A stretch of 55,141 nucleotides of DNA from Hyphomicrobiaceae bacterium UBA2767 (GTDB lineage: Bacteria > Pseudomonadota > Alphaproteobacteria > Rhizobiales > Methyloligellaceae), in NCBI GenBank assembly GCA_002352635.1, contig DEIT01000193.1, positions 11,545 to 66,685 of the forward strand, written 5' to 3'. Below, piece by piece: positions 1,808 to 50,294 of the stretch. The position numbers were made by a program, and so were the translations under genes. A model generated the notes under the pieces. It made no database searches. It saw nothing but the letters and a program-made list of their open reading frames with translations, and had not been told where the DNA came from. Each line of letters starts with the position of its first letter. Position 1 is the stretch's first letter.

Positions 1808-2323
1808 TCAGGAACTCAGGTCGGGAGTCACTTCTTTCAGACCGGCGTAATTGCCATCGTGATAAACAAGCGGCAGCCCCCTGTCAGATAACCGCAACTC
1901 CACGATTCGACCCAGAAATATGGTGTGTGTTCCTACGTCGATCCGAGAATCCACTTCGGCGTCAAAGTTCACGAGGGCGTTACGGATGGCGGGGGCGCCA
2001 GTTGCAAGCGTATCCCAGTCGCAGAGTTTGAAACGCGCGTCCCTGTCCAGGGTCATGAAGTTTGTCGCAGTTTCAAACTGCTGCTCGTCAAGAACGCTTA
2101 CGCAAAACCGACTGCCCTCGGCTATCGTTTTGTGCATCTGCGCAGCCCGGTTGATGCAAATCAGCAATGTCGGTGGATCGGCGCATACAGAACATACAGC
2201 CGTAGCCAGCATTCCTCTTGGTTTGCCATCGACCATCGCCGAGATGACGTTCACCGCCGCCGCAAGATGACGCATTCCATTTTTGAAATCTTCTGAGGTG
2301 ATACCTGACATTTCCTTATCCAC
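1808..2323 (-). CDS. NAD(P)H-flavin reductase #1 (HpaC/NtaB-type flavin_reduct domain)
   Basis: 171 aa. FKNGMRHLAAAVNVISA...GMLATAVCSVCADPPTLLICI...THTIFLGRIVEL...PLVYHDGNY resembles small reductase components of two-component monooxygenases. The track start is GTG and overlaps the upstream stop by 8 nt. ATG at 2311 is an alternative start. Confidence 0.8.
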   Translation of the reverse strand: MDKEMSGITSEDFKNGMRHLAAAVNVISAMVDGKPRGMLATAVCSVCADPPTLLICINRAAQMHKTIAEGSRFCVSVLDEQQFETATNFMTLDRDARFKLCDWDTLATGAPAIRNALVNFDAEVDSRIDVGTHTIFLGRIVELRLSDRGLPLVYHDGNYAGLKEVTPDLSS

Positions 2324-3524
2324 TTGCCGCTTGAGTTTTAGGTGTTTTATTGGTCTTTGTCAGCGCATCCGATAAGACGCCCTCGTCCAGCAGGCGGCGA
2401 ACGAGTTCTGAATCGCATCCCCAGTCGCTAAGCGCCGAGGTCGTATCGGCGCCTGATTCACGAGGCGGCCCCTGAACGGCACCAGGAGTGCGGGAAAACC
2501 GCGGCGCCGGTGCAGGTTGCCGAACTCCGCAAACATCGACAAACATTTCGCGGGCGCGATTGTGAGTATCCTCAATTGCCTCGCTCATGGACAAGACCGG
2601 CGCAAGACACGCTTCGCCATCACCGGCGAGATGGATCCATTCGTCGCGTGTTTTCTGCCGGATTGAGTCAGCGATTGCGTGGCTAATTGCCGGCCATTTT
2701 GTGCGGTCGTTCTGCTTATCAATGAACGATTGCGGAAGTTTCAAAAGGCGCACCAGCTCAGAAAAAAACTTGGGTTCAATTGCACCGATAGCGACATATT
2801 CATTGTCAGCAGTTTCATAGCACCCATAAAATGGCGCGCCACCATCGATAACATTTGCGCCCCGTTCCTCTGACCATTGACCCGTTGCGAGCATTTCGAA
2901 AATCATCGTCATCATATTGGCAGTGGCGTCGACCATTGCGGTGTCAACTATTTGTCCTTTCCCGGACTTCGACGCTTCGAACGCCGCCGCGACGAGACCA
3001 AATGCCAAGAACAGGGCGCCGCCAAAATCTCCCACGAGATTGAGTGGCGGCACTGGCGGCCCGTCGGCTTGCCCGATTCCCGCAAGGACGCCGGTCGTGG
3101 CGATATAGTTGATGTCATGTCCGGGAAGGGTGGCGCGCGGACCGCTCTGGCCCCACCCGGTCATGCGGCCATAAACAATATGGGGACTTTTCGTTAAAAC
3201 GTCGCCTGGCCCCAGACCAAGACGCTCCATTACGCCGGGGCGCATGCCCTCGATCAATATATCGGCCTCGGCAGTGAGATTCAAAATCAATTCGCTTGCG
3301 CCTGGCTTTTTAAGATCAATTGCAACAGAAGGCCGGCCCCTGTGCATAAAACTGGAGCGGCTGCTTGCAGGGCTCGATGATGTTTCAATGCGGTCGAAAC
3401 GCAGGACTTCGGCTCCAAGATCCGAGAGCAACATGCTGCAATAAGGGCCAGGACCGATGCTTGCGATTTCGAGCACTCGAATGCCCGACAGTGGTCCTGC
3501 AGCATTGCTTTTTGGTGACGACAT
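2316..3524 (-). CDS. Family III CoA-transferase / alpha-methylacyl-CoA racemase-like protein (CaiB/BaiF fold) #1
   Basis: 402 aa. GIRVLEIASIGPGPYCSMLLSDLGAEVLRFDR and the Asp loop LNLVGDFGGALF are typical of CaiB/BaiF/AMACR proteins. A GAGGA SD precedes ATG 3524. Confidence 0.8.
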   Translation of the reverse strand: MSSPKSNAAGPLSGIRVLEIASIGPGPYCSMLLSDLGAEVLRFDRIETSSSPASSRSSFMHRGRPSVAIDLKKPGASELILNLTAEADILIEGMRPGVMERLGLGPGDVLTKSPHIVYGRMTGWGQSGPRATLPGHDINYIATTGVLAGIGQADGPPVPPLNLVGDFGGALFLAFGLVAAAFEASKSGKGQIVDTAMVDATANMMTMIFEMLATGQWSEERGANVIDGGAPFYGCYETADNEYVAIGAIEPKFFSELVRLLKLPQSFIDKQNDRTKWPAISHAIADSIRQKTRDEWIHLAGDGEACLAPVLSMSEAIEDTHNRAREMFVDVCGVRQPAPAPRFSRTPGAVQGPPRESGADTTSALSDWGCDSELVRRLLDEGVLSDALTKTNKTPKTQAASG

Positions 3525-3705: not shown

Positions 3706-4860
3706 ATGAATTTTGAAATGACACCGAGGCAATTGGAACTTATTGAGACCGCACGTGAAGCATACGCGAGAAAACTAGAGCCCCTCGCGGGCGATAGGAG
3801 TGTTGAAGGCACTTGGAAGCTCCGTAAGGCAATGGCAGAGCAGGGCTTTTTAGGCCTCAACATGCCGACAGATCTGGGTGGTGTGGGTTTGCCACTGCTG
3901 GATACGCTTATGGTCATACAAACTCTTCACGCCTGTTCGTCGGCCGTCGGCAGCCTGGCGCATCGGACATCCACAGGTGCTTGCGGTGCGATTGAGGCTT
4001 ATGGCACGCCGGAACAGCGCGAGAAATACATTCGTGGAATTTGTTCTGGCGAGTTAGGAATTTCGATCGGTATTACGGAGCCGGAGGCAGGCTCGGCAGC
4101 GACAGCAATGCGGACCAGAGCCGAGATAGACGGTGATGAAGTCGTAATCAATGGCAGCAAACAGTTCGTCAGCAGCATTAACACCAATGATTATACGGTG
4201 GTTTACTGCCGTTTCGGAACCACGGGTCGGTCTTCGGACATCGGAGCGGTTATCGTTCCCCATGATGCGCCGGGTTTCAGTCGCTCGAACGGTACCATTA
4301 ACATGGCCGACGAGCTGCTGTTCGAGCTCTATTTTGATGAGTGCCGTGTGCCCAAATCCAACATCCTGCTCGACGGCAGCGCGTTTGGAAAACTAATCAG
4401 CGTTTATAACGCTGAGCGACTGGGGAGCATCTCGCGTTTACTCGGCGCTGCGCAGGCCGCATACGAATATGCGCTTGCCTATTCCAAGGAACGGCATCAG
4501 TTCAATCGCCCAATTAGCGATTTCCAGGGCATTCAATGGATGCTTGCGGAAATGCGGATCAAACTCGATGCGGCACAGTTGCTCGTATACCGGGCAGCCG
4601 CTACGGCCGGGGCGACGGGTCTGCCGGAACCGCTTGAGACCTCGATTGCCAAGGTTTTCACTGCCAAAGCCGCAAAAGAGATCTGTGACGATGCGATCCA
4701 GATTCTAGGCGCAAACGGCTACACGAAGGAATATCCGCTGGTGCACCGCTACGCCGAGGTGCGTGGCGGGTCAATCTATGGCGGTACGCTTCAGATACAC
4801 AAGAACATGATCGCGGCAAAGATTCTCGATCGCCCAATAAGCCAATGGAAGAAGGATTAG
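3706..4860 (+). CDS. Acyl-CoA dehydrogenase with IVD/LCAD-type catalytic base
   Basis: 384 aa. ITEPEAGSAATAM matches the ACAD fold. Glu sits at the helix-G position (VYNAERLGS) and Gly at the MCAD-Glu376 position (SIYGGTLQIHKN), as in isovaleryl-CoA dehydrogenase. Confidence 0.85.
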   Translation: MNFEMTPRQLELIETAREAYARKLEPLAGDRSVEGTWKLRKAMAEQGFLGLNMPTDLGGVGLPLLDTLMVIQTLHACSSAVGSLAHRTSTGACGAIEAYGTPEQREKYIRGICSGELGISIGITEPEAGSAATAMRTRAEIDGDEVVINGSKQFVSSINTNDYTVVYCRFGTTGRSSDIGAVIVPHDAPGFSRSNGTINMADELLFELYFDECRVPKSNILLDGSAFGKLISVYNAERLGSISRLLGAAQAAYEYALAYSKERHQFNRPISDFQGIQWMLAEMRIKLDAAQLLVYRAAATAGATGLPEPLETSIAKVFTAKAAKEICDDAIQILGANGYTKEYPLVHRYAEVRGGSIYGGTLQIHKNMIAAKILDRPISQWKKD

Positions 4861-4872
4861 GGGAGGCATTTC

Positions 4873-5334
4873 GTGTCGGAAATTGATCGCTCGCTGATTG
4901 GCTCGCAGTCCGAGCTGTTTGTAGTTGAGGTTGAAAAAGGCGCTATTCGCAAGTTAGCCGAGGCCATCGGTGACCCGAATCCCGTTTACAGGGATGCGGA
5001 TGAAGCGATGGCTCAAGGGTATGCTGGCATTATCGCGCCGCCGACCTTTCCCGTGACATTCTTTCCGCCTGAAGAGCCCGAATGGACGCGTGATCTCGAT
5101 CGGCGCAGGATTCTGGCCGGCGAGCAGCGGTTTCTGTACTCGCGCCCGATCATAGCAGGGGACGTATTGACGTGCCGCGTGATCTTCCTCGGTGTCGATG
5201 ACAAGCAAGGGAAGTCAGGCAAAATGGAGCTGTTGTACCAGGAGATCGTCGGAGAGGGCGCGGATGGCAATCACGTCTTTTCCAATACGAAGACGACTGT
5301 TTACAAGGAAGCGGTAGGTTTGCTTAAGAAGTGA
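4873..5334 (+). CDS. MaoC_dehydrat_N-type hotdog protein (HadA/ChsH-like partner half of an (R)-specific enoyl-CoA hydratase)
   Basis: 153 aa with a GTG start 6 nt after GGGGAGG. GAIRKLAEAIGDPNPVYRDADEAMAQGYAGIIAPPTFPV is the usual N-terminal-type MaoC signature. Confidence 0.7.
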   Translation: MSEIDRSLIGSQSELFVVEVEKGAIRKLAEAIGDPNPVYRDADEAMAQGYAGIIAPPTFPVTFFPPEEPEWTRDLDRRRILAGEQRFLYSRPIIAGDVLTCRVIFLGVDDKQGKSGKMELLYQEIVGEGADGNHVFSNTKTTVYKEAVGLLKK

Positions 5335-5382: not shown

Positions 5383-7002
5383 ATGAAAACCATAAACGCT
5401 ACAAAACTAGATGAGATGCTGGGATCGTCGGAAGGCGCCTGGCCGGTCCGAAAATGGGCGTTTTTCGATGTCCGCGAAGTTGGCGAGAGCCAAAAGGGCC
5501 ATATCTCAACCGCGACATTCTTACCCCGGCGCATGATCGAGTACCGGCTATCCGAGCTCGTGTCGGCGCCGGCTACGCCTATAATCCTCTATGATGATGG
5601 CGAAGGGGATATACGGGCCAGCTGTGCCGCAAAAACAATGGCCGACCTGGGCTACACGGATGTTACGTGCCTGGTAGGCGGCTATGCGGGATGGAAACAG
5701 GCGGGATTTGAAGAGGTTACCGGCTGGAATGTTCCGAGCAAGGATTTCGGCGAACAAGTCCTGGTTACCAGCAATGTACCTTACCTGAACTCAAACGAGC
5801 TTGCGGGGCGGCTTGAAGCGGGTGAAAATATCGGCATTTTTGACGTCCGCACACCGGGCGAATTTCGAGAAGCATCGTTGCCGGCCAGCGTATGCGCTCC
5901 TTCATTCGAATGGGCGCTGCACGCCAAAGACCTCAACGATAATTTTGACACCATTGTCATTCACTGCGCCGGCCGAACGAGATCGATCATCGGCGCGGCA
6001 ACGGCCAGCCTCCTTGGATTGAAGAACCTGTGGTCCCTTGAAAACGGGACGATGGGTTGGATCCTCTCCGACCATGAACTTGCATCGAACCAGACGCGCG
6101 TACTTGGCGCGCCGAGTGAAGAGAGCCTTTCCGATTCGGCTGAGCGGGCTCAAGAACTCGCGGAGTCGCTGGGTGTAAAATATATGAGCCCGAAGGAGTT
6201 GAAGACACGTCTCGATGATCGCTCGAGGAATTCGCTTTATATTTTTGACGCGCGCGATGGCGACGGCTACCAACAGGAGCATATCTCCAGCAGTATCTGG
6301 TTGCCTGGGGGGCAGGCCTGTCAACGCACAGACGATTTTGCGGCTGTGCCGGGATCTCCGATTGTTTTCGTCGACGATGACGATGCACGGGCCCTCGTTA
6401 CCGCATATTGGTTCCTCCGTATGGGTTTCCCGGATGTCTCTATTTTGAAGGGGGGCATTAAAGCCTGGCAGGACGAGGGATATATCGTAAAAACGGGGCG
6501 TGACCGGCCGGAGCCGCTTGGGCTCGAGGACGCAAAGGCCCGCAGCGTGGCGTTAGATTGTGCGGACTTGCAAAAGGCCGTGGGCTCAGACAATCCACCC
6601 ATTGTGATCGACGTTGGAGCCAGCAAACGAGTTGCCGCCTGTCACATACAGGACGCCAAGTGGATTCCACGCGGTTATCTCGAAGCGCAAATAGGCAATT
6701 TCGCTGACAAGTCAAAACCCGTTGCGGTCACCGCATGGGAACCTCAGCAGGCGGCGTTCGCCGCTGCTGCGTTGGCAGATGCTGGATACCAGCACGTGAC
6801 GTGGCTTACCGCTCCAGGCAAGGAATGGAAAGAGGCGCTGCCAACCACAACAGGCTTGCCCGAAGATGCAACTGAGGTTGCTGATACTCTGGCCATTCCC
6901 TACCGCGAGAGCAAGGAGCGGATGCTCGAATATCTCGAATGGGAAGAGGAACTTGGAAAAAAACACATGAGCTCAGCGGCCAAGCAGGAAACGGTGAAAT
7001 AA
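5383..7002 (+). CDS. Four-domain rhodanese protein #1 (one catalytic Cys)
   Basis: 539 aa with four rhodanese-like repeats. The active-site loops read LYDDGEGD (Asp), IHCAGRTRS (Cys195, nt 5965-5967), FVDDDDAR (Asp) and VTAWEPQQ (Ala). The C-terminal motif is YLEWEEELGKK. It aligns along its whole length with ORF 32466-34094. Confidence 0.85.
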   Translation: MKTINATKLDEMLGSSEGAWPVRKWAFFDVREVGESQKGHISTATFLPRRMIEYRLSELVSAPATPIILYDDGEGDIRASCAAKTMADLGYTDVTCLVGGYAGWKQAGFEEVTGWNVPSKDFGEQVLVTSNVPYLNSNELAGRLEAGENIGIFDVRTPGEFREASLPASVCAPSFEWALHAKDLNDNFDTIVIHCAGRTRSIIGAATASLLGLKNLWSLENGTMGWILSDHELASNQTRVLGAPSEESLSDSAERAQELAESLGVKYMSPKELKTRLDDRSRNSLYIFDARDGDGYQQEHISSSIWLPGGQACQRTDDFAAVPGSPIVFVDDDDARALVTAYWFLRMGFPDVSILKGGIKAWQDEGYIVKTGRDRPEPLGLEDAKARSVALDCADLQKAVGSDNPPIVIDVGASKRVAACHIQDAKWIPRGYLEAQIGNFADKSKPVAVTAWEPQQAAFAAAALADAGYQHVTWLTAPGKEWKEALPTTTGLPEDATEVADTLAIPYRESKERMLEYLEWEEELGKKHMSSAAKQETVK

Positions 7003-7850
7003 TGAGCGTTCGGTCGTGTGTTGGCCCTGCCGATATCGAGTGGCTCGAGAACGAGGCAATTCTCCACCGCACGCCTTGCGGGACTGGAAATCTCACATGG
7101 CGTCAGTGGGGCAAAGGACCACCGCTCATATTGTTGCATGGCGGGTTCGGCTCCTGGAAGCACTGGGTGCGCAACGTCGGGGAGCTCTCGAAGAGCTTCA
7201 CCGTATACGCTGCTGATCTGCCGGGACTTGGCGACTCCGATCCTGGACCCGAGCCTATCACAGCGCGGACGCTGGCAGCTATTTTCAGCGAAGGCATTGA
7301 TCGTTTGGTTGGCAAGGACGAGCGGATGTACGTCGGTGCATTCTCGCTTGGTGCGGCCATTTCCGCACCTCTGATTTGTATGTTAGGCGATCGTGTCCGT
7401 CATGCGATCCTCATCGGTCCAGGTGGACTTGGTTCGCTATGGCATAATTCTATTGAGAAACTGCGCCGCCGCTCCTCGACCATGACGGAGGAGGAACAGC
7501 GGGAAGTCATTCACTACAATCTGGCTTTTTCAATGATTGCCAACCGTGAACTGATCGACGAAGACACGATATCGCTTCAATTCGAGTTGTTGGCTCAGAA
7601 GCGACGATTGATCGGATTGCCAATCTCGAAATCGTCCATTGTCTTCGACTGCCTGCCGGAAATAGGTAATCGAACGACATTTGTATGGGGCGAACACGAT
7701 CCATACCCCACTCCAGATTTGAAGGCAGTCATTAAAAAATTCCATGGCGATGTTCCTGGAGTGGACATTCGTATCATAGACGGCGTTGGTCATTGGGCGA
7801 ATTTTGAAGCGGATGAAATCGTTTCGGACATGTTTCGTGACATGCTTTGA
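7002..7850 (+). CDS. Alpha/beta-fold hydrolase #1
   Basis: ATG 7002 shares one base with the rhodanese TAA (TAATG). Motifs present are LILLHGGFGSWKHW, the nucleophile elbow GAFSLG and the C-terminal GVGHW histidine. The track start at 6939 would overlap the rhodanese by 64 nt, so I reject it. Confidence 0.8.
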   Translation: MSVRSCVGPADIEWLENEAILHRTPCGTGNLTWRQWGKGPPLILLHGGFGSWKHWVRNVGELSKSFTVYAADLPGLGDSDPGPEPITARTLAAIFSEGIDRLVGKDERMYVGAFSLGAAISAPLICMLGDRVRHAILIGPGGLGSLWHNSIEKLRRRSSTMTEEEQREVIHYNLAFSMIANRELIDEDTISLQFELLAQKRRLIGLPISKSSIVFDCLPEIGNRTTFVWGEHDPYPTPDLKAVIKKFHGDVPGVDIRIIDGVGHWANFEADEIVSDMFRDML

Positions 7851-8025: not shown

Positions 8026-9486
8026 ATGATCGGACTGAGCGGATTTGGCGGATATATTCCGCGATTGAGATTATCGAGAAAGAGCATTGCCGAGGTCAAT
8101 GGATGGATTCAGCCCGGCATCAAGCGGTTGGGCAAGGGCGAGCGCAGCATCTGCAATTGGGATGAGGACAGTGTGACAATGGCAGTTGAGGCTGCACGCG
8201 ATTGTCTCGACAACCAGAACGGTAAGCAGTTGCGCGCCATCTATCTTGGATCCACGACTTTACCGTTCCAGGACCGCCAGAATTCGGGCGTCGTTGCCGC
8301 AGCACTCAATCTCGATGAGGCCTTGTCCACCATTGACATCACCGCCGCACAAACGGCAGGCACTTCAGCGCTGGTTGCGGCACTTGATGCAGCGGACGGC
8401 GCCAAAGGGGGGGATATTCTCGTGCTGGCAAGTGACGCGCGGCGAACTCGTTCAGCCGCCCAGCAGGAAATGACCTTCGGCGATGGCGCAGCGGCGTTTA
8501 CTGTCGGTAGCAAAGATGTCGTCGCCGAGCTTCTCGGGTATCATTCGGTATCCATTGATTTCGTTGACCATTATCGTGGTGACAATCGCGAATATGATTA
8601 TAACTGGGAAGAACGCTGGATACGCGATGAAGGGCTTCTCAAGATTATTCCGAACGCGATCTCCGAAGCATTCGGCAAGGCAGGCATCGCGGCAGAAGAT
8701 GTCGACGTTTTGATCGCGCCATCCACGTTACGGGGTGTTTCGGCAAAGATCGCCAAAATGGTTGGTGTTTCAGAGGAAAGCTTGGCCGAGTCGCTCGATG
8801 GCGTTGTCGGTGAGACTGGCTGCGCGCACCCGCTGGTCATGCTGTCGCACAGTCTGGAAAGTGCATTACCAGGACAGGTGATCGTTGTCGCATCGTTTGG
8901 ACAGGGCTGCGATGTATTGGTCTTCAAGACCACTGATGCAATCGCCTCATTCAAGCCGTCCTTAGGAATATCAGGTTACATTTCGCGACGTTGCGAGGAA
9001 ACCAACTACAACAAGTTCATGGCCTTCAACGACCTCGTCCTTCAGGAGAAAGGCATGCGCGCCGAACTGGACAATCAAACGGCGCTAACCCAACTCTATC
9101 GCCGCCGCGACATGCTGCTTGGTCTTGTCGGCGGGGAGTGTGATGTATGTGGAACGCACCAGTTCCCGCGCTCGCGTATCTGCGTAAACCCGAACTGCAA
9201 TGCGATGAATACGCAAAAGCCTTTCCAGTTTGCCGATATTCCTTCGAAAATCATGACATGGTCGGCGGACCACCTGACGTACTGCCCCGATCCGCCATTG
9301 CATTATGGCATAATTCAATTCGAGGGCGGGGGCCGCTTTCTCGCCAATTTCACCGACGTTGATGTCGGGAATGTCGAGGTCGGCCAAGATATGAGAATGA
9401 TGTTTCGCATTAAGGATTATGACGATCTGCGCGGCTTTCGCCGTTACTTCTGGAAAGCTGCCCCATCCAATCAAACGAGGAATTGA
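8026..9486 (+). CDS. HMG-CoA-synthase-like (thiolase-superfamily) domain fused to a DUF35 OB-fold/zinc-ribbon domain
   Basis: 486 aa. The N-terminal ~340 aa align by eye to HMGCS/MvaS (NWDEDSVTMA Glu motif; QEMTFGDGAAAFTV). The nucleophile position reads A-A108-Q (nt 8347-8349) instead of A-C-Y. The C-terminal part has the Zn ribbon CDVCGTHQFPRSRICVNPNC (about nt 9130-9200) and an OB-like tail, as in DUF35. Confidence 0.75.
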   Translation: MIGLSGFGGYIPRLRLSRKSIAEVNGWIQPGIKRLGKGERSICNWDEDSVTMAVEAARDCLDNQNGKQLRAIYLGSTTLPFQDRQNSGVVAAALNLDEALSTIDITAAQTAGTSALVAALDAADGAKGGDILVLASDARRTRSAAQQEMTFGDGAAAFTVGSKDVVAELLGYHSVSIDFVDHYRGDNREYDYNWEERWIRDEGLLKIIPNAISEAFGKAGIAAEDVDVLIAPSTLRGVSAKIAKMVGVSEESLAESLDGVVGETGCAHPLVMLSHSLESALPGQVIVVASFGQGCDVLVFKTTDAIASFKPSLGISGYISRRCEETNYNKFMAFNDLVLQEKGMRAELDNQTALTQLYRRRDMLLGLVGGECDVCGTHQFPRSRICVNPNCNAMNTQKPFQFADIPSKIMTWSADHLTYCPDPPLHYGIIQFEGGGRFLANFTDVDVGNVEVGQDMRMMFRIKDYDDLRGFRRYFWKAAPSNQTRN

Positions 9487-9489
9487 ACT

Positions 9490-10692
9490 ATGGCAAGTGG
9501 AATCAGGGACAAAGTTGCAATAGTCGGCATGGGGTGCTCCAAATTCGGCGAACGCTGGGATTGCGATACCGAAGACCTCATTGTCGAGGCGTTTGAGGAA
9601 TGCATCCTGGACGCCGGGATCGATATCAAGGAGATTCAGGCCGCCTGGCTTGCTACCGCTATCGAGGAAGTCCATTCCGGGAAAGGCGGCATTCCTCTCG
9701 CTTTTGCTCTGCGTCTCCCCTACATCCCTGTGACTCGTGTCGAAAACTTCTGCGCCAGCGGCTCTGAGGCGTTGCGTGGCGCCGTCTATGCGGTCGCTTC
9801 AGGAGCATGTGATATTGCACTTGCCCTGGGGGTTGAGAAACTCAAAGACACGGGCTATGGCGGCTTGCCGCAGCGCAGCCGCGGGGTCCTGAATTCCATG
9901 TGGTGGGCCAACTATTCCGCCCCGGGATCCTTTGCCCAACTTGCCTCCGCTTATCAAGCCAAGCACGGAATCAATGCTGACGAACTCAAACGAGCGATGG
10001 CTCATATTTCGGTCAAGAGCCACGCCAATGGCTCCAAGAATCCGAAGGCGCATCTCCGGAACAAAATCACCGAAGATCAAGTGCTCTCCGCGCCAATCAT
10101 CGCAGAGCCGCTCGGTCTTTTCGATTGTTGTGGCGTGAGCGATGGCGCCGCCTGCGCGATTGTCACCACGCCCGAAATTGCGAGGAACCTTGGAAAGAAG
10201 GATCTCATTACGGTCAAGGCGCTGCAACTCTCGGTCTCGAATGGAACCGAGTCGGGGCACAATTCCTGGGACGGCAGTCATTTCATGACGGCCCGGATTG
10301 CCAGCACTCGGGCTTACGAGGAAGCAGGAATACGCGACCCCCGGAAGGAGATAGATCTTGCCGAAGTGCACGACTGCTTTTCGATCACGGAACTCGTGAC
10401 AATGGAAGATTTACACTTGTCGCCCGAGGGAGGTGCGGTCAAGGATGTGCTGGACGGTTTCTACGATTCAGATGGCGGTCTGCCTTGCCAAATCGACGGC
10501 GGGCTTAAGTGTTTCGGCCACCCGATCGGTTCGTCCGGTCTGAGGATGATCTACGAGCTTTATCTGCAGATGCAAGGTCGAGCCTCCGAACGCCAGGTCG
10601 AAAATCCCAAATTGGGGCTTACCCACAATTTGGGCGGCGCGCCACATCAGAATGTGTGTTCGGTAGCCATCATTGGGCAGTTGGGGGCATAG
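9490..10692 (+). CDS. SCP-x / nonspecific lipid-transfer-type thiolase
   Basis: 400 aa. It starts 3 nt after the upstream stop. The nucleophile motif is VENFCASGSEAL and the C-terminal motif is KCFGHPIGSSGLRM. The N-terminus VAIVGMGCSKFGE is typical of DUF35-associated thiolases. Confidence 0.85.
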   Translation: MASGIRDKVAIVGMGCSKFGERWDCDTEDLIVEAFEECILDAGIDIKEIQAAWLATAIEEVHSGKGGIPLAFALRLPYIPVTRVENFCASGSEALRGAVYAVASGACDIALALGVEKLKDTGYGGLPQRSRGVLNSMWWANYSAPGSFAQLASAYQAKHGINADELKRAMAHISVKSHANGSKNPKAHLRNKITEDQVLSAPIIAEPLGLFDCCGVSDGAACAIVTTPEIARNLGKKDLITVKALQLSVSNGTESGHNSWDGSHFMTARIASTRAYEEAGIRDPRKEIDLAEVHDCFSITELVTMEDLHLSPEGGAVKDVLDGFYDSDGGLPCQIDGGLKCFGHPIGSSGLRMIYELYLQMQGRASERQVENPKLGLTHNLGGAPHQNVCSVAIIGQLGA

Positions 10693-10765: not shown

Positions 10766-11680
10766 ATGAGCAAATTATTGGAAGGCAAAGTCGCTATTGT
10801 TACCGGTGCAGGGCGCGGTATCGGGCGAGGAATTGCAGAGTCAATGGCTGCCCACGGCGTCAAGGTGGTTGTCAATGATCTTGGTGCGACTGCCGATGGC
10901 GAAGGCGAGGATACCGGACCCGCCAATGAAACCGTCGAAGCGATCAAGAAGGCCGGCGGCATAGCCATTGTCAACGGCGATAGTGTTGCGAGCTGGGATG
11001 GCGCACACGCCATGGTCGAAACCGCGCTTTCGACGTGGGGCCGTATCGATTGTGTAATCAACAACGCCGGTATCCTTCGCGACGTAATCTTCCACAAGCT
11101 TGAGGAAGCGGATTTTGACGCTGTCGTCGCCGTCCACCTCAAAGGCAGCTTTAACGTATCGCGCGCCGCGGCTCCGCATTTCCGCAAACAGGAAAGCGGC
11201 GCATACGTGCACATGACGTCAAATTCGGGGCTGATCGGCAATTTCGGACAAGCCAATTATGCCGCTGCCAAGATGGCTATTGTTGGCCTCTCAAAGTCGA
11301 TTGCACTCGATATGTCGCGTTTCAACGTAAGGTCCAACTGTATCTCGCCGACGGCATGGAGCCGCCTTACAGGCACTATCCCGGCCTCAACCGATGCCGA
11401 GAAAGAACGCGTCAGCAAGATCATGGCCATGACGCCGGACAAGATTGCGCCGCTCGCAACTTATCTCTGCAGTGACGCGGCAAAAGACGTCACCGGACAG
11501 ATATTTGCGGTCCGTAACAACGAGATTTTCCTGATGTCGCAAAATCGTCCGCTCCGCTCGGTTCACGATTCCGATGGCTGGACGCCGGAAAAAATCGCCA
11601 ACCATGCCATGCCTGTGCTGAAGGCAACGTTCTATGACCTCGAGCGGTCTGGCGATGTCTTTTGCTGGGATCCGATTTGA
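10766..11680 (+). CDS. SDR, MFE-2-type (R)-3-hydroxyacyl-CoA dehydrogenase-like
   Basis: 304 aa. VAIVTGAGRGIGRGIA...VVVNDLG...GRIDCVINNAGILRD...GNFGQANYAAAKMAIVGL closely parallels the dehydrogenase domain of peroxisomal multifunctional enzyme 2. Confidence 0.8.
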   Translation: MSKLLEGKVAIVTGAGRGIGRGIAESMAAHGVKVVVNDLGATADGEGEDTGPANETVEAIKKAGGIAIVNGDSVASWDGAHAMVETALSTWGRIDCVINNAGILRDVIFHKLEEADFDAVVAVHLKGSFNVSRAAAPHFRKQESGAYVHMTSNSGLIGNFGQANYAAAKMAIVGLSKSIALDMSRFNVRSNCISPTAWSRLTGTIPASTDAEKERVSKIMAMTPDKIAPLATYLCSDAAKDVTGQIFAVRNNEIFLMSQNRPLRSVHDSDGWTPEKIANHAMPVLKATFYDLERSGDVFCWDPI

Positions 11681-13448: not shown

Positions 13449-15107
13449 ATGCCAAGCTCAGAGTCTGAGGAGTACAATCGCGGCGCAAAGGTGAATCCGT
13501 TCGCGAACAAGACATATTCTGAATCAATCCAGTTGCTGGTTGAAAACTATGGTGACCGGATTGCACTCATATACGGTGATCAGAAATACACATTTCGTCA
13601 GATTAAGAATGAAATTGACGATGCATCGCGCAAACTCAGAGCCATTGGACTGAACCGCGGCGACAAAGTGGCGATATGGTTGCCCAACCAGGCCGAATTC
13701 CTCTTTACCTGGCTCGGAGCCGGTCAAATCGGACTGACTGCCGTTATTTTGAACACGCGCCTGATGGCCGAGGAGGTGAGCTACCAATTAAGGCAGTCGG
13801 ATAGTCGGGCAGTGATAGTACCAGGTGACGGCGCATTCCGTGATTTTCTCGGCGACATCGCTTCGCTATGTCCGGATATTCGCGATGCCGCGCCTGGCGA
13901 AAAATTCGGCGGAGAGAATGTGCCAACGCTGGAATTTGTTATTTCTCTCGGTCAGACAGGGCACGGGTTTCGCGGCGTGCTTCAGTGGGATGATGTTGAG
14001 ACTGATGACGATACGCCACTCGCCTACGAGACCGATCCGAATAGCGCCGCCCTCATTGCATACAGTTCCGGCACGACAGCACTGCCAAAAGGCGCGATGC
14101 TGACCCATGCAATTTGGCGCAAGGCGGCAGATCACGGCGAACGCTTCTTTCAAAAACCCGACGACAGGCTCTACCTCTGTGTGCCTCTGTTTTCGATCCT
14201 TTCAACCGTAAACGGTGTTATCACCTTCTGGACCGGAGGCTCGGCCGTCGTACTCGAAGATCGCTATGAGCCGGAGAAGATGCTGGCGGCAATCGAGCGT
14301 GAACGCTGCACGGCGGCTTACCTCTTGCCGCTTATGATCTGCAAATCGGTGGAACTGCCAAATTTTAAGGACTTCGATCTATCCAGCCTGCGAACCGGGA
14401 TTCTCGTGACGACCGATCGAGACGCCTTCATGGCGGCCTACGAAAAACTCGGCATGACAGATTTTGTCACTAGCTACGGGATGACCGAGACGTCGAGCGC
14501 GTGTACGCGGACCTGGTCCAGCGATCCGCTTGAAGTGCGCCTTAGATCGCACGGCAAACCTCTTCCTGACATCGACGTGCGAATTGCCGATCCAGATTCC
14601 AATGAGGAGGTTCCGCGCGGCAAGGTCGGCGAAATTCAGGTTCGCGGCTACAATATTATGCTCGGCTACTACAACAAACCGGAGGAGACGCAGCGCGCTT
14701 TCAGCGGGGACGGCTGGTACAAGTCCGGTGATGCTGGTGAAATGTTCGAGGATGGTTCCATACGGTTCCTTCACCGTCTGTCGGACGGCTACAAGCACAA
14801 GGGATTCAATGTCTCGACCGCCGAGGTCGAGGCAGTTCTCGAACGCCATCCTGACGTGAAGCAGGCGGCCGTCGTCGGCATTCCCGATAAGGAAGTGGGC
14901 GAAGTCGGTACGGCCTTCGTTATCCCGAATGAAGAATCCAGTGTCGACGATGAAACGCTGATTGCCTTTGCGAATGAGCATCTCGCGTCCTTCAAAGTGC
15001 CGGCGCATCTGTTCCTTGCCGACGGGTTCCCGATGACGGCTGGCACCGAGAAAATTCAAAAATTCAAGCTCCGGGAGCGCGCACTCAAGCAGCTTGAACG
15101 GACCTGA
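13449..15107 (+). CDS. Acyl-CoA synthetase (ANL superfamily), tandem copy 1
   Basis: 552 aa. Motifs are AYSSGTTALPKGAM, GYGMTETS and a C-terminal GTEKIQKFKLRE. It is collinear with the next two ORFs. Confidence 0.9.
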   Translation: MPSSESEEYNRGAKVNPFANKTYSESIQLLVENYGDRIALIYGDQKYTFRQIKNEIDDASRKLRAIGLNRGDKVAIWLPNQAEFLFTWLGAGQIGLTAVILNTRLMAEEVSYQLRQSDSRAVIVPGDGAFRDFLGDIASLCPDIRDAAPGEKFGGENVPTLEFVISLGQTGHGFRGVLQWDDVETDDDTPLAYETDPNSAALIAYSSGTTALPKGAMLTHAIWRKAADHGERFFQKPDDRLYLCVPLFSILSTVNGVITFWTGGSAVVLEDRYEPEKMLAAIERERCTAAYLLPLMICKSVELPNFKDFDLSSLRTGILVTTDRDAFMAAYEKLGMTDFVTSYGMTETSSACTRTWSSDPLEVRLRSHGKPLPDIDVRIADPDSNEEVPRGKVGEIQVRGYNIMLGYYNKPEETQRAFSGDGWYKSGDAGEMFEDGSIRFLHRLSDGYKHKGFNVSTAEVEAVLERHPDVKQAAVVGIPDKEVGEVGTAFVIPNEESSVDDETLIAFANEHLASFKVPAHLFLADGFPMTAGTEKIQKFKLRERALKQLERT

Positions 15108-15129
15108 TTAACAGTGAAGGAATAGAAGT

Positions 15130-16740
15130 GTGAACGCGTTCCGCGACCTTACTTACGCAGAAAGCATTAGTCGGATTGCGCATGCGCACGGGACACGCGA
15201 GGCCATCATCTATCGCGATCAGCGCTATACATTTGCAGATCTCAAAAAACATGTGGACGAGGCTTCGGCACGGCTGGCGTCAATAGGACTTAAAGCGGGA
15301 GACAAAGTCGCTATCCTGCTTCCGAACCGTCCGGAATTCATCTGGTATTGGTTTGGCGCGTCTCAGATTGGACTTGTCGCGGTGATGCTGAACACTCGGT
15401 TGCGCCGCGACGAGTTGGCTTATCAGCTAGCGCAGTCCGACAGTCGCGCGATTATCGTTCCTGGTAGCGGGGCCTTTCGCGATTTTCTTGCTGAATTGAG
15501 TGATCTGGCCCCGGCCATCGCAGAAGGCGAGCCAGGCAAGCTGGCCAGCGAGCAACTTACCGAACTCAACCACGTTATCGCGGTAGATACATTCAGCGCC
15601 GAGTACAGTGGTGTCCTGGACTGGTCATCGCCTCCGACGGAGAACCTTGAAGTGCCGCCGATGGAGACGGACCCAGCGAAACCAGGCATCATCGGCTACA
15701 GCTCCGGAACCACCGCGCTTCCAAAAGGCGCGATGATTTCTCATTGCGTCTGGCGCAAGGCCTGGGACCTTGGAGAGCGAACCGAACTGACCGAGAACGA
15801 CTGTCTTTACATGGCATTACCGCTGTTCGGGACGATGGCGAACCTGAACGGCGTCCTGCCCTATCTTGTACGAGGCGCCAAGCTGGTGATCGGCGAGCAA
15901 TTCGATGCCGGCGTGTGCCTTCGGGCGATCGAAAACGAGCGGGTCACCAGTATCCATCTTCTGCCAGCGACTATCAAACAACTTGTCGAGCATTCAGACT
16001 TTGAAAAATACGACCGTTCGTCGTTGCGCTTATCTTACACGTTATCGATTGACCCCGCGGTCCTTGATGTTGTCGCGGATGTTATCGGCATTCCTGGTGT
16101 CATGACAGGCTACGGCCTGACCGAGACAACCGCCGTTGCGACCCGCAATCACTGGACCGATTCACGGGAACATCGACACGGCACTCAAGGCTGGGCGTTG
16201 CCGGACGTCGAGGTCAAGATCGTCGATCCCGAAACGCTGGCGGATATTTCCCCGAATCAGAGAGGTGAAATCTGGGTGCGGGGTTATTGCACAATGCTGG
16301 GCTATTACAAAAAGCCGAAGGAGACGGCGGATATGCTGCTGCCCGACGGGTGGCTCAGAACCGGCGACATTGGGCAGGAAGATGAGACAGGCCGGATCAA
16401 GTTTCAAGGACGTCTGGGCGACGGCTACAAGTCGCGCGGATTCAACGTATCGCCAGAAGAGATCGAGCACGTAATCAACAAGCATCCGGCTGTTGAGTCG
16501 TCGTCTGTTGTCGGCGTGCCGGATTCATTCGCGGAGAAAGTTGGGGTCGCGTTTGTGATCAAGAAGAAAGACGCTTCCCTAACGGAGAATGGGCTGCTCG
16601 ATTATCTTCAGCCCAAATTGGCCGGCTACAAGATGCCGCTTCACGTGTTTTTCACGGATCAGTTCCCGCTAACAACCGGGACTGGCAAAGTACGCAAAGT
16701 CAGACTACGTGAGATGGCAACCGAACATCTCGGTCTCTAA
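15130..16740 (+). CDS. Acyl-CoA synthetase (ANL superfamily), tandem copy 2
   Basis: 536 aa with a GTG start 22 nt after copy 1. Motifs are GYSSGTTALPKGAM, GYGLTETT and GTGKVRKVRLRE. Confidence 0.9.
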   Translation: MNAFRDLTYAESISRIAHAHGTREAIIYRDQRYTFADLKKHVDEASARLASIGLKAGDKVAILLPNRPEFIWYWFGASQIGLVAVMLNTRLRRDELAYQLAQSDSRAIIVPGSGAFRDFLAELSDLAPAIAEGEPGKLASEQLTELNHVIAVDTFSAEYSGVLDWSSPPTENLEVPPMETDPAKPGIIGYSSGTTALPKGAMISHCVWRKAWDLGERTELTENDCLYMALPLFGTMANLNGVLPYLVRGAKLVIGEQFDAGVCLRAIENERVTSIHLLPATIKQLVEHSDFEKYDRSSLRLSYTLSIDPAVLDVVADVIGIPGVMTGYGLTETTAVATRNHWTDSREHRHGTQGWALPDVEVKIVDPETLADISPNQRGEIWVRGYCTMLGYYKKPKETADMLLPDGWLRTGDIGQEDETGRIKFQGRLGDGYKSRGFNVSPEEIEHVINKHPAVESSSVVGVPDSFAEKVGVAFVIKKKDASLTENGLLDYLQPKLAGYKMPLHVFFTDQFPLTTGTGKVRKVRLREMATEHLGL

Positions 16741-16780
16741 GCCATCTCACCTCTCCAAATATGCTAAGAGGCACTCGGTT

Positions 16781-18391
16781 ATGACCACGAATCCCTTCAT
16801 CAACAAAACATATGCGCAATCGATTTCTTACGTTGCCGAAACCTATGGCGATGCAACTGCGCTAACCTTCGAAGGCAGAGACTACAGTTACAAAGATATC
16901 AAGAGGGAAGTAGATCGTGCATCGGGGCGATTGGCAGCGCTCGGCGTGAAGCGCGGCGAAACCGTCGGTATTTGGCTCCCCAACTGTCCGGAGTTCGCAT
17001 GGCTTTGGTTCGGAGCGGCGCAAATTGGTGCGATTCCTGTTATCATGAATACATGGCTCCGCCGCGCCGAATTCGAATACCAGATTGCTCAGTCTGAGAG
17101 TGTGGTCGTTTGTGTGCGCGGTCCAGGAGCGTTCCGCGACTTCCTGGGAGAACTGGCAGAAGTCTGCCCGGCGATTCGAGATGGAGAATTGCCGGCCGCG
17201 CCTTTCCCGAAGTTGAGGCAGGTCGTGACACTGGACCCGCTGGAAGAGGGGTGGGGACATATCGTCGATTGGGATTCCCTGGGGGATGATCATCCTGTGC
17301 CCCCTTATAGTGACGACCCAAACTCACCGGCTCTCATCGCATATAGTTCCGGAACGACATCGTTGCCCAAGGGTGCCATGCTGTCACACTGCATCTGGCG
17401 CAAGGCTTGGGATGGATCACGTTTTCTCGATATGACTCCCGAGGATTGCCTCTATCTGACTGTGCCACTGTTTGGTGTTCTCGGCTGCATCAACGGTCTT
17501 TTGATGCTCTGGGCTAATGGCGGCAGAGTTATCCTGCGTGAGCGCTTCGATCCGACTGACCTGATCAAGACCATCAGCAGTGAAAAGTGTACGCTTGCCC
17601 ATCTGCTGCCGACAATGGTCGACCGCATTGCCGAACACCCGGACTACAACAAGGAAGCGTTCGAGACGCTTCGCGGCGGTGTATTGCTGAGTAGTCAAAA
17701 GGAGCATTTTTTACGGGCGATGGAAGTAATGTGCGCATCTGGTTACACGTCGGGTTATGGACTGACTGAATCAACGGGCTTGGTTACGCGCTGTCGCTGG
17801 GACGATTCACTCGAAGTACGTCTATCCCACCAGGGCTGGCCGTTACCGGATTGCCCCATTCGTATCATCGATTTGAAGACCGGCGAGGACTTATCGCCCG
17901 GTGAAGAAGGCGAAATTCTTGTCGGGGGGTATTCCGTGATGCTTGGCTACTTTAACAAACCCGAGGAGACAGCGCAAAGTATCACTGAAGATGGGTGGCT
18001 GCGTTCCGGCGATCTTGGGCGATTGGACGCTGACGGGGCATTAAAGTTCTTGCGGCGTATCAAAGACGGATACAAGCATAAGGGCTTCAACGTTTCCACT
18101 CCTGAGGTGGAAGCGTCAGTAATAAAATTCCCAGGCGTCGTGGCCGCAGCGGTCGTTGGCGTTCCTGACTCGCAACATGGCGAACGCGGCGTGGCCTTCA
18201 TCATCTCCGAGGGGGGTGCTTCTCCAGAACCTGCTGAACTTTTGGCGTTTCTTAAGACCCAGCTTTCTTCGTTCAAGGTCCCTGAGACGATATTTGTGGT
18301 TGATGAATTTCCGCTAACATCGGGAACGGATAAAGTTCGAAAGTTTAAATTGCGTGAAATGGCAATGGAGAACCTCGGAATAGAAGCCTGA
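16781..18391 (+). CDS. Acyl-CoA synthetase (ANL superfamily), tandem copy 3
   Basis: I start it at ATG 16781 (MTTNPFINKTYAQSI), which aligns with the N-termini of copies 1 and 2. The track start at 16709 overlaps copy 2. Motifs are AYSSGTTSLPKGAM and GTDKVRKFKLRE. Confidence 0.9.
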   Translation: MTTNPFINKTYAQSISYVAETYGDATALTFEGRDYSYKDIKREVDRASGRLAALGVKRGETVGIWLPNCPEFAWLWFGAAQIGAIPVIMNTWLRRAEFEYQIAQSESVVVCVRGPGAFRDFLGELAEVCPAIRDGELPAAPFPKLRQVVTLDPLEEGWGHIVDWDSLGDDHPVPPYSDDPNSPALIAYSSGTTSLPKGAMLSHCIWRKAWDGSRFLDMTPEDCLYLTVPLFGVLGCINGLLMLWANGGRVILRERFDPTDLIKTISSEKCTLAHLLPTMVDRIAEHPDYNKEAFETLRGGVLLSSQKEHFLRAMEVMCASGYTSGYGLTESTGLVTRCRWDDSLEVRLSHQGWPLPDCPIRIIDLKTGEDLSPGEEGEILVGGYSVMLGYFNKPEETAQSITEDGWLRSGDLGRLDADGALKFLRRIKDGYKHKGFNVSTPEVEASVIKFPGVVAAAVVGVPDSQHGERGVAFIISEGGASPEPAELLAFLKTQLSSFKVPETIFVVDEFPLTSGTDKVRKFKLREMAMENLGIEA

Positions 18392-18470
18392 ACCCAACAC
18401 TGATTTGGTGCGGTATTTCCATCGCCTTATGCTTTCCCAGCAACGCCGGTACCGGCGAAAAGCAATTTTC

Positions 18471-19490
18471 ATGACAGATATGAACCAAACTCCAGAGATC
18501 GATTGCTCCAAATCTTCCGTATGTCGATTGCTCGGCATTCGGTTTCCGATTTTACAGGGCGGCATGACGCTTGTTGGCACAGCTAAGCTTGCTTCGGCGG
18601 TATCGGAGGGCGGCGGGCTTGGCGTCGTTTCGGCGGGGCGTATGGATGTGGAAACATTTGAGCGGGAATTAGAAGATGCCATTGCCATGACGGACAAGCC
18701 GCTCGGCGTAAATATTCCCGTCGGCCGGAATATTGAATGGATGAAGGCCATTTTCGACATGGCCCTGCAACGGAATGTCAAAATAGTTCTCATTGGTGGC
18801 GGTGATCCGAAGCCGTGGAGCCCGCTGGTGAAGGCCGCTGGAAAGTTGCTTGGCATCGTCGTCGCATCGCCTCAGCAGGCCGCTAAAGCTGAGGCCACGG
18901 GGGCGGATCTGGTGATCGCCGAAAGTATCGAGGCGGGCGGGCGGACAAGCCGCGATGAAATTTCCGGCGTGACCTTGATACCCGCGACCGCAGACAGGAT
19001 TTCCGTTCCATTGGTCGCGGCCGGTGGCATCGTGGATGGGCGTGGCCTGGCCGCTGCGCTGGCTCTTGGCGCGGACGCGGTTCAAATGGGCACTCGCTTC
19101 ATGCTGGCCAAGGAATCTCCTCTGCACCAGAATGCCTGGGAGGCGATGCTGGCGTCCGATATCACCGATACTTTAGTGGTGGGAAACCACCACCGGATGG
19201 GACGGCGTGTACTGCACAGCGCCGCGTCTGAAAAGGTTAGGCAGCGGGAGGACGACGCCTCGCCCGAAGAGATGATCGAGATGCTGTCCGGCGAGTGGAG
19301 CCGGCAGGGGCTGCATCTCGGCAACCTCCAGCAAGGCCTGATTGCCTGCGGCCAGGGTGTCGGCTTGATCCACGAGGTTCTACCCGCTGCCGACATTATC
19401 GCCAATGCTGTTCGGCAGGCGGAACAGCATTTGCAGCGAGCTTTTTCGATCGTCCGAAACCCCAAACGTTCATCAACTCGTTGTGAATGA
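18471..19490 (+). CDS. FMN-dependent nitronate monooxygenase / FabK-like enoyl reductase family protein
   Basis: ATG 18471. LLGIRFPILQGGMTLVGTAKLASAVSEGGGLGVV...VAAGGIVDGRGLAAALALGADAVQMGTRF is the NMO/2-nitropropane-dioxygenase TIM-barrel signature. Confidence 0.8.
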   Translation: MTDMNQTPEIDCSKSSVCRLLGIRFPILQGGMTLVGTAKLASAVSEGGGLGVVSAGRMDVETFERELEDAIAMTDKPLGVNIPVGRNIEWMKAIFDMALQRNVKIVLIGGGDPKPWSPLVKAAGKLLGIVVASPQQAAKAEATGADLVIAESIEAGGRTSRDEISGVTLIPATADRISVPLVAAGGIVDGRGLAAALALGADAVQMGTRFMLAKESPLHQNAWEAMLASDITDTLVVGNHHRMGRRVLHSAASEKVRQREDDASPEEMIEMLSGEWSRQGLHLGNLQQGLIACGQGVGLIHEVLPAADIIANAVRQAEQHLQRAFSIVRNPKRSSTRCE

Positions 19491-25337: not shown

Positions 25338-25372
25338 ATTTCACTGTATTGAGTAACGGGAGGCATTGGAAA

Positions 25373-29555: not shown

Positions 29556-29557
29556 TT

Positions 29558-50246: not shown

Positions 50247-50294
50247 GCGATGTAAGCGCACCTCAATCAATAGAGTATTCAAGGAATATTGCAG

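Follow-up and report, generated by a model that had tools for sequence, protein, structure and literature searches.

What could a synthase-like domain that seems to have lost all of its catalytic residues contribute to a thiolase? The question is raised by two adjacent genes of Hyphomicrobiaceae bacterium UBA2767, located in the window, i.e. the whole stretch of 55,141 nucleotides that was analysed (assembly GCA_002352635.1, contig DEIT01000193.1, positions 11,545 to 66,685). The first gene (8026..9486, + strand, ATG start) encodes a fusion protein of 486 residues, in which a putatively dead domain resembling 3-hydroxy-3-methylglutaryl-CoA synthase (HMGS) and PhlA is followed by a linker and a DUF35 domain. 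The second (9490..10692, + strand, ATG start) encodes a 400-residue SCP2-type thiolase, the presumed catalytic subunit. Both open reading frames (ORFs) lie where the first-pass annotation had placed them, and the peptides that it quoted from the fusion protein were found at aa 44 (NWDEDSVTMA), aa 147 (QEMTFGDGAAAFTV) and aa 372-391 (CDVCG...CVNPNC). We propose that the two proteins probably form a two-subunit thiolase complex, with the thiolase as sole catalyst and the pseudo-HMGS-DUF35 protein as its partner, performing thiolysis in R-specific beta-oxidation. Most likely, the pair would carry out C-C cleavage in a pathway of beta-oxidation type.

The domain structure of the fusion protein was assayed with profile libraries, PDB sequences and a structural model. 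In Pfam, two matches were obtained at threshold (ACP_syn_III_C, 26.6 bits; OB_ChsH2_C, 27.8 bits) and one just under its cut-off (zf-ChsH2, 18 bits). The archaeal-type HMGS models of NCBIfam align end to end with aa 1-331, all well below their curated cut-offs. PRK04262 reaches 177.9 bits for a cut-off of 244, TIGR00748 135 for 353 and TIGR01835 48.9 for 360; by score, the protein is not an HMGS equivalog. Against the PDB, the sequence matched PhlA (1e-30), archaeal HMGS 6esq_I (1.5e-24) and the DUF35 subunit 6esq_E (2e-5). Its N-terminal 310-340 residues account for the matches to PhlA, 6esq_I and MucA, and the last 120 residues for those to the DUF35 subunits of these complexes. With a family profile built from 25 members, the matches became stronger: 1.6e-48 for PhlA, 3e-38 for 6esq_I, 1.8e-10 for 6esq_E and 2.6e-7 for PhlB.

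This profile also located the junction. Profile positions 2-338 align to residues 4-347 of the 349 residues of 6esq_I, while 6esq_E begins at profile position 359, the DUF35 match spanning 359-481. Since the archaeal HMGS ends at 338 and DUF35 starts at 359, the fusion simply places the two domains one after the other, separated by about 20 linker residues. Thus, on profile and Foldseek matches, the HMGS/PhlA-like thiolase-fold domain covers aa 1-338 (8026..9039, +), the linker aa 339-358 (9040..9099, +) and the DUF35 domain aa 359-486 (9100..9483, +). The latter consists of a Zn ribbon, with cysteines Cys372, Cys375, Cys386 and Cys391 (nt 9139-9198, +), followed by an OB fold.

The AlphaFold2 (AF2) monomer model of the fusion protein had a mean predicted local distance difference test score (pLDDT) of 82 and a predicted TM-score (pTM) of 0.88. 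Searched with Foldseek, it gave target-normalised TM values of 0.82-0.88 to PhlA, archaeal HMGS and MucA, namely 0.85-0.88 to 6esq_I/6et9_I and 0.82-0.84 to PhlA. The model thus predicts an HMGS/KAS-III-type thiolase fold. The linker was modelled poorly, with pLDDT values below 50 at 341-357. Altogether, Pfam, NCBIfam, PDB and AF2 bear out the earlier proposal that an HMGS/KAS-III-like domain and DUF35 are joined in a single ORF.

The catalytic tetrad of HMGS, E-C-H-N, corresponds to E82/C114/H238/N270 of the archaeal enzyme, and replacing the tetrad abolishes HMG-CoA synthesis (PMC12960953). The equivalent positions of the fusion protein were identified from pairwise (phmmer) and profile alignments to archaeal HMGS, PhlA, MucA and FabH. 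Thr77 (codon ACG, 8254..8256, +) lies opposite E82, where GSTTLPF replaces GSESHPY. Gln109 (codon CAA, 8350..8352, +) lies opposite C114, DITAAQTAGT being aligned with DLEFACKAGT in HMGS and DVQF[SA]GKSGT in PhlA; the Cys of Mycobacterium tuberculosis FabH falls in the same column. The histidine H238 is opposite Pro232 (8719..8721, +; LIAPSTL versus CVFHQPN), and N270 is opposite Glu263 (8812..8814, +; VGETG versus LGNTY). All four catalytic residues of HMGS are thus replaced in these alignments (T77/Q109/P232/E263), and the synthase-like domain is predicted to be a catalytically dead pseudo-enzyme.

The first-pass annotation had read the acyl-Cys position as Ala108 (nt 8347-8349), which is one residue early. 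Ala108 was rejected as the pseudo-nucleophile, every alignment setting the Cys opposite Gln109. Position 108 is that of the small residue just before the nucleophile, a Ser in 114 of 120 close homologues. The AF2 secondary structure does not distinguish a helix N-cap at 108 from one at 109. The core of the earlier claim holds, as neither Cys nor any other nucleophile occupies the active-site position in the pairwise and profile alignments. Of the points that it had proposed to check by alignment, the loss of Cys stands, its replacement by Ala does not, and the Glu and His are also found replaced; with the whole tetrad gone, the case for a non-catalytic domain is stronger than first stated. The window protein is itself unusual around this site: besides Ala108, it has Thr110 (8353-8355) where 109 of the 120 homologues have Arg, and its closest relative (85% identical) reads Ser-Gln-Thr at 108-110.

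The first-pass annotation had also suggested looking for the same fusion in other genomes, and the architecture turned out to be widespread. The fusion protein has more than 6,000 homologues in the databases; the top 120 all share its fused architecture and a length of about 485 residues, most of them being from Alphaproteobacteria. When 1.84 billion representative proteins were searched with the profile, 1,040 clusters (50% identity) were obtained at E<=1e-30, and a genome collection of species representatives contained more than 600 matching stretches. Conservation was analysed in two sets, the 120 close homologues and the best 150 of the 1,040 representatives, which are far more diverse.

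In the close homologues, all four replaced positions are nearly fixed. The Thr77 column is Thr in 119/120 close homologues and 115/150 representatives; Pro occurs at the Pro232 column in 116/120 close homologues, and Glu (93) or Asp (22) at the Glu263 column in 115. The nucleophile column varies with the breadth of the set, from Q (113/120), L (6) and M (1) in close homologues to L (59), Q (28), R (13), M (7), A (6), P (4) and others including T in the 150 representatives. No Cys occurs there in either set (0/120 and 0/150). Plasmid-borne fused homologues from Azoarcus, Sphingopyxis, Rhodococcus, Mycobacterium, Streptomyces and Haladaptatus have Leu, Arg, Pro, Gly, a gap and Thr at this column. 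We specifically sought an active, Cys-bearing HMGS-DUF35 fusion and found none among the 120 homologues, the 150 representatives and the plasmid copies from Actinobacteria and haloarchaea. Because the column drifts while its neighbours (Ser108, Arg110 and Ala-Gly-Thr) are conserved, it looks like a non-catalytic position.

This variability bears on another reading, in which the HMGS-like domain would have kept an activity of a different kind, either as a KS-Q-like decarboxylase using Gln109 or as a hydrolase/lyase using His268, Asp181 and His182. Gln at the nucleophile position of a ketosynthase is a hallmark of KS-Q/CLF decarboxylases, and a FabH C112Q structure was among the fold matches. 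However, Gln109 is clade-specific, being replaced by many other residues in the diverse representatives and by L, R, P, G or T in the plasmid copies, which argues against a KS-Q role. Moreover, the His and Asn required by decarboxylating ketosynthases are Pro232 and Glu263 here. The decarboxylase was set aside on these two grounds, the variable column and the missing partners. A retained activity of either kind would agree with the strong conservation of the domain, with its many invariant charged residues and with His268 invariant in close homologues; in the diverse set, however, His268 is kept in only 81/150 sequences. We therefore regard any such activity of the domain as very unlikely.

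The DUF35 part is even more uniform, its four Zn-ribbon cysteines being invariant in 120/120 close homologues. Two sphingomonad copies depart from this pattern. In Sphingomonas paeninsulae (locus L083, 8001-9446, reading CTKTGT...ISVNPND) and Sphingopyxis macrogoltabida (locus L087, 4968-6398), these cysteines are mostly or all lost, and from this loss the DUF35 zinc site appears dispensable in some lineages. A further variant is carried by a megaplasmid of Haladaptatus caseinilyticus (locus L084, 2829-5416), which encodes a Cys-less HMGS-DUF35 fusion with Thr at the nucleophile column. There, the thiolase gene precedes the fusion gene, an order reversed relative to the window, and the fusion gene adjoins genes for an acyl-CoA dehydrogenase, an enoyl-CoA hydratase and two UbiD-family decarboxylases. 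This haloarchaeal protein is annotated '3-hydroxy-3-methylglutaryl CoA synthase'. The NCBI name of the family, 'HMG-CoA synthase family protein', likewise carries a risk of wrong mevalonate-pathway calls in metabolic reconstructions, and such genes should not count as evidence for that pathway in annotation pipelines.

The second protein, the thiolase, scored 701.9 bits with NCBIfam PRK06157 (cut-off 403) and matched Pfam Thiolase_C_1 at 1.9e-32. Its PDB matches were 7yvy_A (1.1e-57), the archaeal acetoacetyl-CoA thiolase (ACAT) 6esq_A (3e-57), the SCP2-thiolase 6hsj_A (1.3e-45) and BbsB (1.8e-40). SCP2-type thiolases were recognised by the nucleophilic Cys of a CxS motif in combination with HDCF and GH motifs, without requiring a second catalytic Cys in the CxG loop. 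Judged by its sequence, the 400-residue protein carries all three: the nucleophile Cys88 (nt 9751-9753, +), the acid/base motif HDCF at 294-297 (nt 10369-10380, +) and the oxyanion motif Gly342-His343 (nt 10513-10518, +). Each is aligned with identical residues in the archaeal thiolase 6esq_A. The NFCASGS string quoted earlier as evidence of an intact nucleophile begins at aa 86.

The state of these motifs also bears on which reaction is to be expected. Thiolysis, retro-Claisen cleavage and acyl transfer had all been listed as candidates by the first-pass annotation; thiolysis is favoured, because the HDxF motif lost in the acyl-transferases PhlC and MucB is intact here. A Friedel-Crafts C-acyltransferase of the PhlACB/MucABC type, either CoA-independent or acetyl-CoA-dependent and acting on a small-molecule acceptor, would agree with the HMGS-like domain having PhlA as its top PDB match, and with the absence of the tetrad from PhlA and MucA too. 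Nevertheless, the HDCF motif is present and aligns with that of the archaeal thiolase, and the match of the thiolase to PhlC is weak, about 2e-18 as compared with 3e-57 for archaeal ACAT. Furthermore, a Pfam scan of the 50 main ORFs of the 55-kb window revealed no polyketide synthase (PKS) or non-ribosomal peptide synthetase (NRPS) genes, and the related complex of Pseudomonas fluorescens acts as a thiolase, unlike PpATase and SmaATase (PMC12960953). We give this acyltransferase hardly any credence.

Similarly, the thiolase-like subunit might be a retro-aldolase of the Ltp2/Sal type seated on DUF35, which would cleave a 3-hydroxyacyl-CoA and not a 3-oxoacyl-CoA. Ltp2-type aldolases are not known to carry the thiolase Cys, whereas Cys88, HDCF and GH are all intact in the window protein and aligned with a proven thiolase. 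The NCBIfam models for lipid-transfer proteins are also far below their cut-offs, and the neighbouring SDR gene encodes an enzyme that would form the 3-oxo substrate. A MaoC-type hydratase gene in the cluster would suit an aldolase, as would the DUF35 partners of steroid side-chain aldolases, which are well documented (PMC11321319). On balance, an aldolase appears highly improbable.

The fusion protein and the thiolase are tightly linked. In the window, the fusion gene ends with TGA at 9484-9486 and the thiolase ATG follows at 9490, 3 nt on. A Shine-Dalgarno sequence for the thiolase gene, GAGGAA, can be read at 9477..9482 (+), within the 3' end of the fusion gene. This location, together with the stop/ATG spacing, suggests that translation of the thiolase is coupled to that of the fusion gene. 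To compare gene neighbourhoods, 80 loci from different species were collected, 42 of them with enough flanking DNA. Neighbours were counted by tblastn and from annotated plasmid records; de novo ORF clustering was dropped, being confounded by long antisense ORFs in this GC-rich DNA. In 69-70 of the 80 loci, and in 40 of the 42 with full flanks, the fusion gene is immediately followed by a thiolase gene of this type. The thiolases have a median identity of 74% to the window protein and their fusion partners one of 53%, a difference that fits a catalytic subunit associated with a faster-evolving, still constrained accessory subunit.

The genes around the pair indicate a possible pathway. Directly after the thiolase gene lies a short-chain dehydrogenase/reductase (SDR) gene of MFE-2 type (10766..11680, +; Pfam adh_short). 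Its product matched (3R)-hydroxyacyl-CoA dehydrogenase 2et6_A (1.5e-99), HSD17B4 (about 1e-57) and BbsD (3.7e-28), and is probably a (3R)-hydroxyacyl-CoA dehydrogenase supplying 3-oxoacyl-CoA. Upstream of the fusion gene are genes for a single hot-dog, MaoC-like (R)-hydratase subunit (4873..5334, +; Pfam FAS1_DH_region at 9e-27, with weak PDB matches to HadA and ChsH1), an acyl-CoA dehydrogenase (ACAD) with the N, M and C domains of Pfam Acyl-CoA_dh (3706..4860, +) and a family III CoA-transferase (2316..3524, -; Pfam CoA_transf_3 at 4e-82), the last being a probable activation step. The window is also rich in AMP-ligases, further ACADs, enoyl-CoA hydratase, transporters of the tripartite ATP-independent periplasmic (TRAP) and major facilitator superfamily (MFS) types and catabolic-type regulators.

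Beta-oxidation partners are also found beside the pair in other organisms. In annotated records, SDR, MaoC, fusion, thiolase, ACAD and CoA-transferase genes are grouped in Variovorax, and SDR, MaoC, fusion and thiolase genes in Sphingomonas. In Sphingopyxis, SDR and ACAD genes lie upstream and MaoC, lyase, ACAD and SDR genes downstream. The pair is accompanied by a second thiolase, an SDR and a crotonase in Rhodococcus, by an SDR and an AMP-ligase in Streptomyces, and by an ACAD and an enoyl-CoA hydratase in Haladaptatus. Of the 42 loci with full flanks, 26 have one or more beta-oxidation partners nearby. The link to beta-oxidation is recurrent, not universal.

The most telling evidence for this role comes from relatives in which the fusion goes further. 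One (P0163, 800 aa) carries an additional SDR, another (P0124, 911 aa) an SDR and an SCP2 domain, and a third (P0125, 722 aa) two SCP2 domains. The SDR part of P0124 is of MFE-2 type and is 46% identical to the window SDR. No mention of these three architectures was found in the literature examined. Taken together, gene context and domain fusions point to a role of the pair in R-specific beta-oxidation, as far as sequence comparison can tell.

The same enzyme types might, on the contrary, work in the condensing direction, the pair being the ketothiolase/DUF35 unit of a CoA-dependent chain elongation completed by SDR reductase, MaoC dehydratase and enoyl reductase. An archaeal fatty-acid synthase complex of this kind has been proposed for Sulfolobus acidocaldarius, in which ketothiolase/DUF35 works together with a MaoC dehydratase and an SDR reductase of (R) specificity (bioRxiv 10.1101/2024.07.05.601840). 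The window contains these types of enzymes, as well as an NMO/FabK-like flavoenzyme (18405-19490). However, the cluster also holds ACAD, CoA-transferase and several AMP-ligase genes, along with transporters and catabolic-type regulators, all of which speak against elongation. In addition, a dead synthase cannot pull an unfavourable condensation, unlike archaeal HMGS, and the P. fluorescens complex cleaved acetoacetyl-CoA and made none from acetyl-CoA (PMC12960953). Elongation is therefore unlikely, although we rate it above the other rivals.

In the degradative pathway that we prefer, the acid would be activated by the CoA-transferase or the AMP-ligases, oxidized by the acyl-CoA dehydrogenase, hydrated by the MaoC hydratase and converted to 3-oxoacyl-CoA by the (3R)-hydroxyacyl-CoA dehydrogenase. 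In the last step, the 3-oxoacyl-CoA would be cleaved with CoA by the complex. The degraded acid is likely to be branched or bulky. By analogy with the archaeal, PhlACB and MucABC complexes, DUF35 may clamp the thiolase dimer onto a dimer of the dead synthase. The latter would maintain the solubility and the correct shape of the thiolase, and probably help to build the CoA-binding chamber at the interface. The thiolase would then have its catalytic pocket at this interface, by the shared CoA chamber, as in 6ESQ, 5M3K and 9VBO (described in PMC12960953). Isolated thiolase subunits of such complexes were insoluble or inactive (PMC12960953).

A candidate for a contact element was found in the fusion protein itself. 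The loop at aa 178-198 (DFVDHYRGDNREYDYNWEERW; 8557..8619, +), which reads DFVDHYR...DYNWEERW, belongs to one of the most conserved segments of the family, with 14 of 29 positions invariant in aa 176-204, and is modelled with low confidence (pLDDT below 50 for residues 180-196 of the AF2 monomer). This loop may be an interface or CoA-gating element, and probably orders only in the complex, at an interface or at the CoA site.

Several points weigh against the proposed role. The neighbourhood is variable beyond the pair itself (SDR in 25-28, MaoC in 13 and ACAD in 12 of the 80 loci), some of the loci have housekeeping surroundings (glmS, glmU, recG), and similarity to an SDR easily arises by chance, given the size of that family. 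The dead domain is conserved more strongly than a bare scaffold needs, with 59/338 positions invariant, among them many charged residues and His268. The complex, its stoichiometry and the CoA-binding role of the partner are inferred from homologous structures to which the HMGS-like domain is only 20-27% identical (Foldseek). Orthology to the P. fluorescens complex relies on architecture, motif states and the His294 numbering, not on direct alignment, and Liao et al. regard that complex as an evolutionary intermediate, with no pathway yet (PMC12960953).

A more ambitious version of our proposal is possible, but we hold it only tentatively. Rather than an evolutionary leftover, the pair might form the centre of an R-specific beta-oxidation metabolon widespread among bacteria (and haloarchaea), with the pseudo-HMGS as docking and CoA-handling platform. 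It would hold the thiolase, recruit the MFE-2-type dehydrogenase and SCP2 lipid-binding modules, and channel bulky or branched 3-oxoacyl-CoAs. The SDR/SCP2 fusions and the conserved, disordered loop 178-198 are compatible with such a metabolon, without proving it. If true, it would be a prokaryotic counterpart of the peroxisomal MFE-2/SCPx system.

Other genes of the window may also serve the metabolism of acids. Its AMP-binding proteins, about 540-600 aa long, are stand-alone ligases. Three AMP-dependent ligase genes are arranged in tandem (13449-18391, +) and two more ligase-like genes lie at 25265-27079 (+) and 34094-35479 (-); this set suggests that several related acids are activated. At 51141-54980 (-), a 670-aa biotin carboxylase/biotin carboxyl carrier protein (BCCP) and a 595-aa carboxyltransferase form an acyl-CoA carboxylase of the methylcrotonyl-/geranyl-CoA carboxylase type, and a stand-alone biotin carboxylase is encoded separately at 29552-30922 (+). 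The carboxylase genes are compatible with catabolism of branched-chain or isoprenoid acids in the same island.

Two paralogues with four rhodanese domains and about 540 aa are encoded at 5383-7002 (+) and 32466-34094 (-). They are 43% identical over 508 aa and both lie among acyl-CoA metabolism genes, the former between the MaoC gene and a hydrolase gene upstream of the fusion gene. A rhodanese homologue is found beside the fusion in only 3/80 related loci. The last 64 nt of the rhodanese ORF are shared with the alpha/beta-hydrolase ORF (6939-7850, +), whose Pfam match begins only at residue 61; thus, the true start of the hydrolase is probably further downstream than listed. Two long ORFs had no Pfam match, 19405-20901 (+, 498 aa) and 49404-51101 (-, 565 aa). 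The former overlaps both neighbours and may not be a real gene.

We searched the literature for earlier descriptions of the family. A search for HMG-CoA synthase-like proteins combined with DUF35 returned no match, a preprint on bile-salt degradation in sphingomonads does not mention this type of fusion gene, and no natural substrate was found assigned to the family among the papers searched. A complex of the same architecture has been characterised. Liao et al. (Nat Commun 2026;17:2196; PMC12960953) examined 1,030 bacterial clusters in which HMGS, ACAT and DUF35 occur together, of which 1,001 have no secondary-metabolism neighbours, and studied one from P. fluorescens.

The pair can be compared with five known systems. 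The archaeal thiolase/HMGS/DUF35 complex has three modules, all homologous to those of the window, and its thiolase motifs are identical. However, that complex depends on an active HMGS consuming acetoacetyl-CoA; with the tetrad absent, the window synthase is predicted to be dead, so that neither HMG-CoA synthesis nor a thermodynamic pull on condensation would be expected. In addition, DUF35 is covalently joined to the synthase-like domain in the window, and the genetic context is catabolic, not related to mevalonate.

PhlACB (PpATase 5M3K/5MG5; CsATase 9SKH) and MucABC (9VBO/9VBT) share the three-module architecture with DUF35. PhlA is the best match of the HMGS-like domain in both sequence and fold; it is also tetrad-less, with Gly at the Cys position. 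Like PhlA, MucA lacks the E-C-H-N tetrad, and the HDxF motif is missing from PhlC and MucB (PMC12960953), which act on aromatic or tetramate acceptors, whereas the window thiolase retains HDCF. In the Phl and Muc systems, DUF35 is a separate protein and PKS or NRPS genes adjoin; in the window, DUF35 is fused, and none of these genes was found in the scans.

BbsAB (7PXP) resembles the window pair in combining DUF35 with an SCP2-type thiolase that has HDxF, and in belonging to a beta-oxidation module with family III CoA-transferase, ACAD, hydratase and SDR. However, BbsA is a free DUF35 protein, devoid of an HMGS-like domain, unlike the window fusion. The window thiolase scored only 145 bits with the BbsB equivalog model NF053628, for a cut-off of 750.

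The peroxisomal system of MFE-2 (HSD17B4) and SCPx also relies on an R-specific hydratase and an SCP2-type thiolase, with a (3R)-hydroxyacyl-CoA dehydrogenase that belongs to the SDR subfamily of the window enzyme, and its SCP2 domains are paralleled by the SCP2 fusions of some family members. This eukaryotic system processes branched, bulky acyl-CoAs. Its enzymes have neither DUF35 nor an HMGS-like partner; therefore the likeness is one of pathway logic, not of membership.

The closest counterpart is the P. fluorescens ACAT/HMGS-DUF35 complex. As in the window, its HMGS-like domain is fused to DUF35 and has lost the E-C-H-N tetrad, no PKS or NRPS genes are nearby, and ACAT retains the catalytic Cys, HDxF and GHx (PMC12960953), the HDxF His being residue 294 in both. 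The complex forms neither HMG-CoA nor acetoacetyl-CoA from acetyl-CoA and cleaves acetoacetyl-CoA, and the H294Y mutant of ACAT is nearly inactive (PMC12960953). These assays agree with the loss of the tetrad and with the intact thiolase motifs of the window pair, in line with the suggestion of the first-pass annotation that the synthase-like module is non-catalytic and that catalysis falls to the thiolase. The combination of a fused dead synthase with an active thiolase was thus already published in January 2026, and the window pair is a further example of it. Two differences can be noted. The fusion gene comes first in the window, unlike the order in the P. fluorescens name, where ACAT precedes HMGS-DUF35. 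Moreover, in contrast to what the P. fluorescens paper describes, the window pair lies inside a complete R-specific beta-oxidation gene set and has relatives fused to SDR and SCP2. What the present analysis adds is physiology: gene context and domain fusions place the family, as a testable hypothesis, at the thiolase step of an MFE-2-type beta-oxidation.

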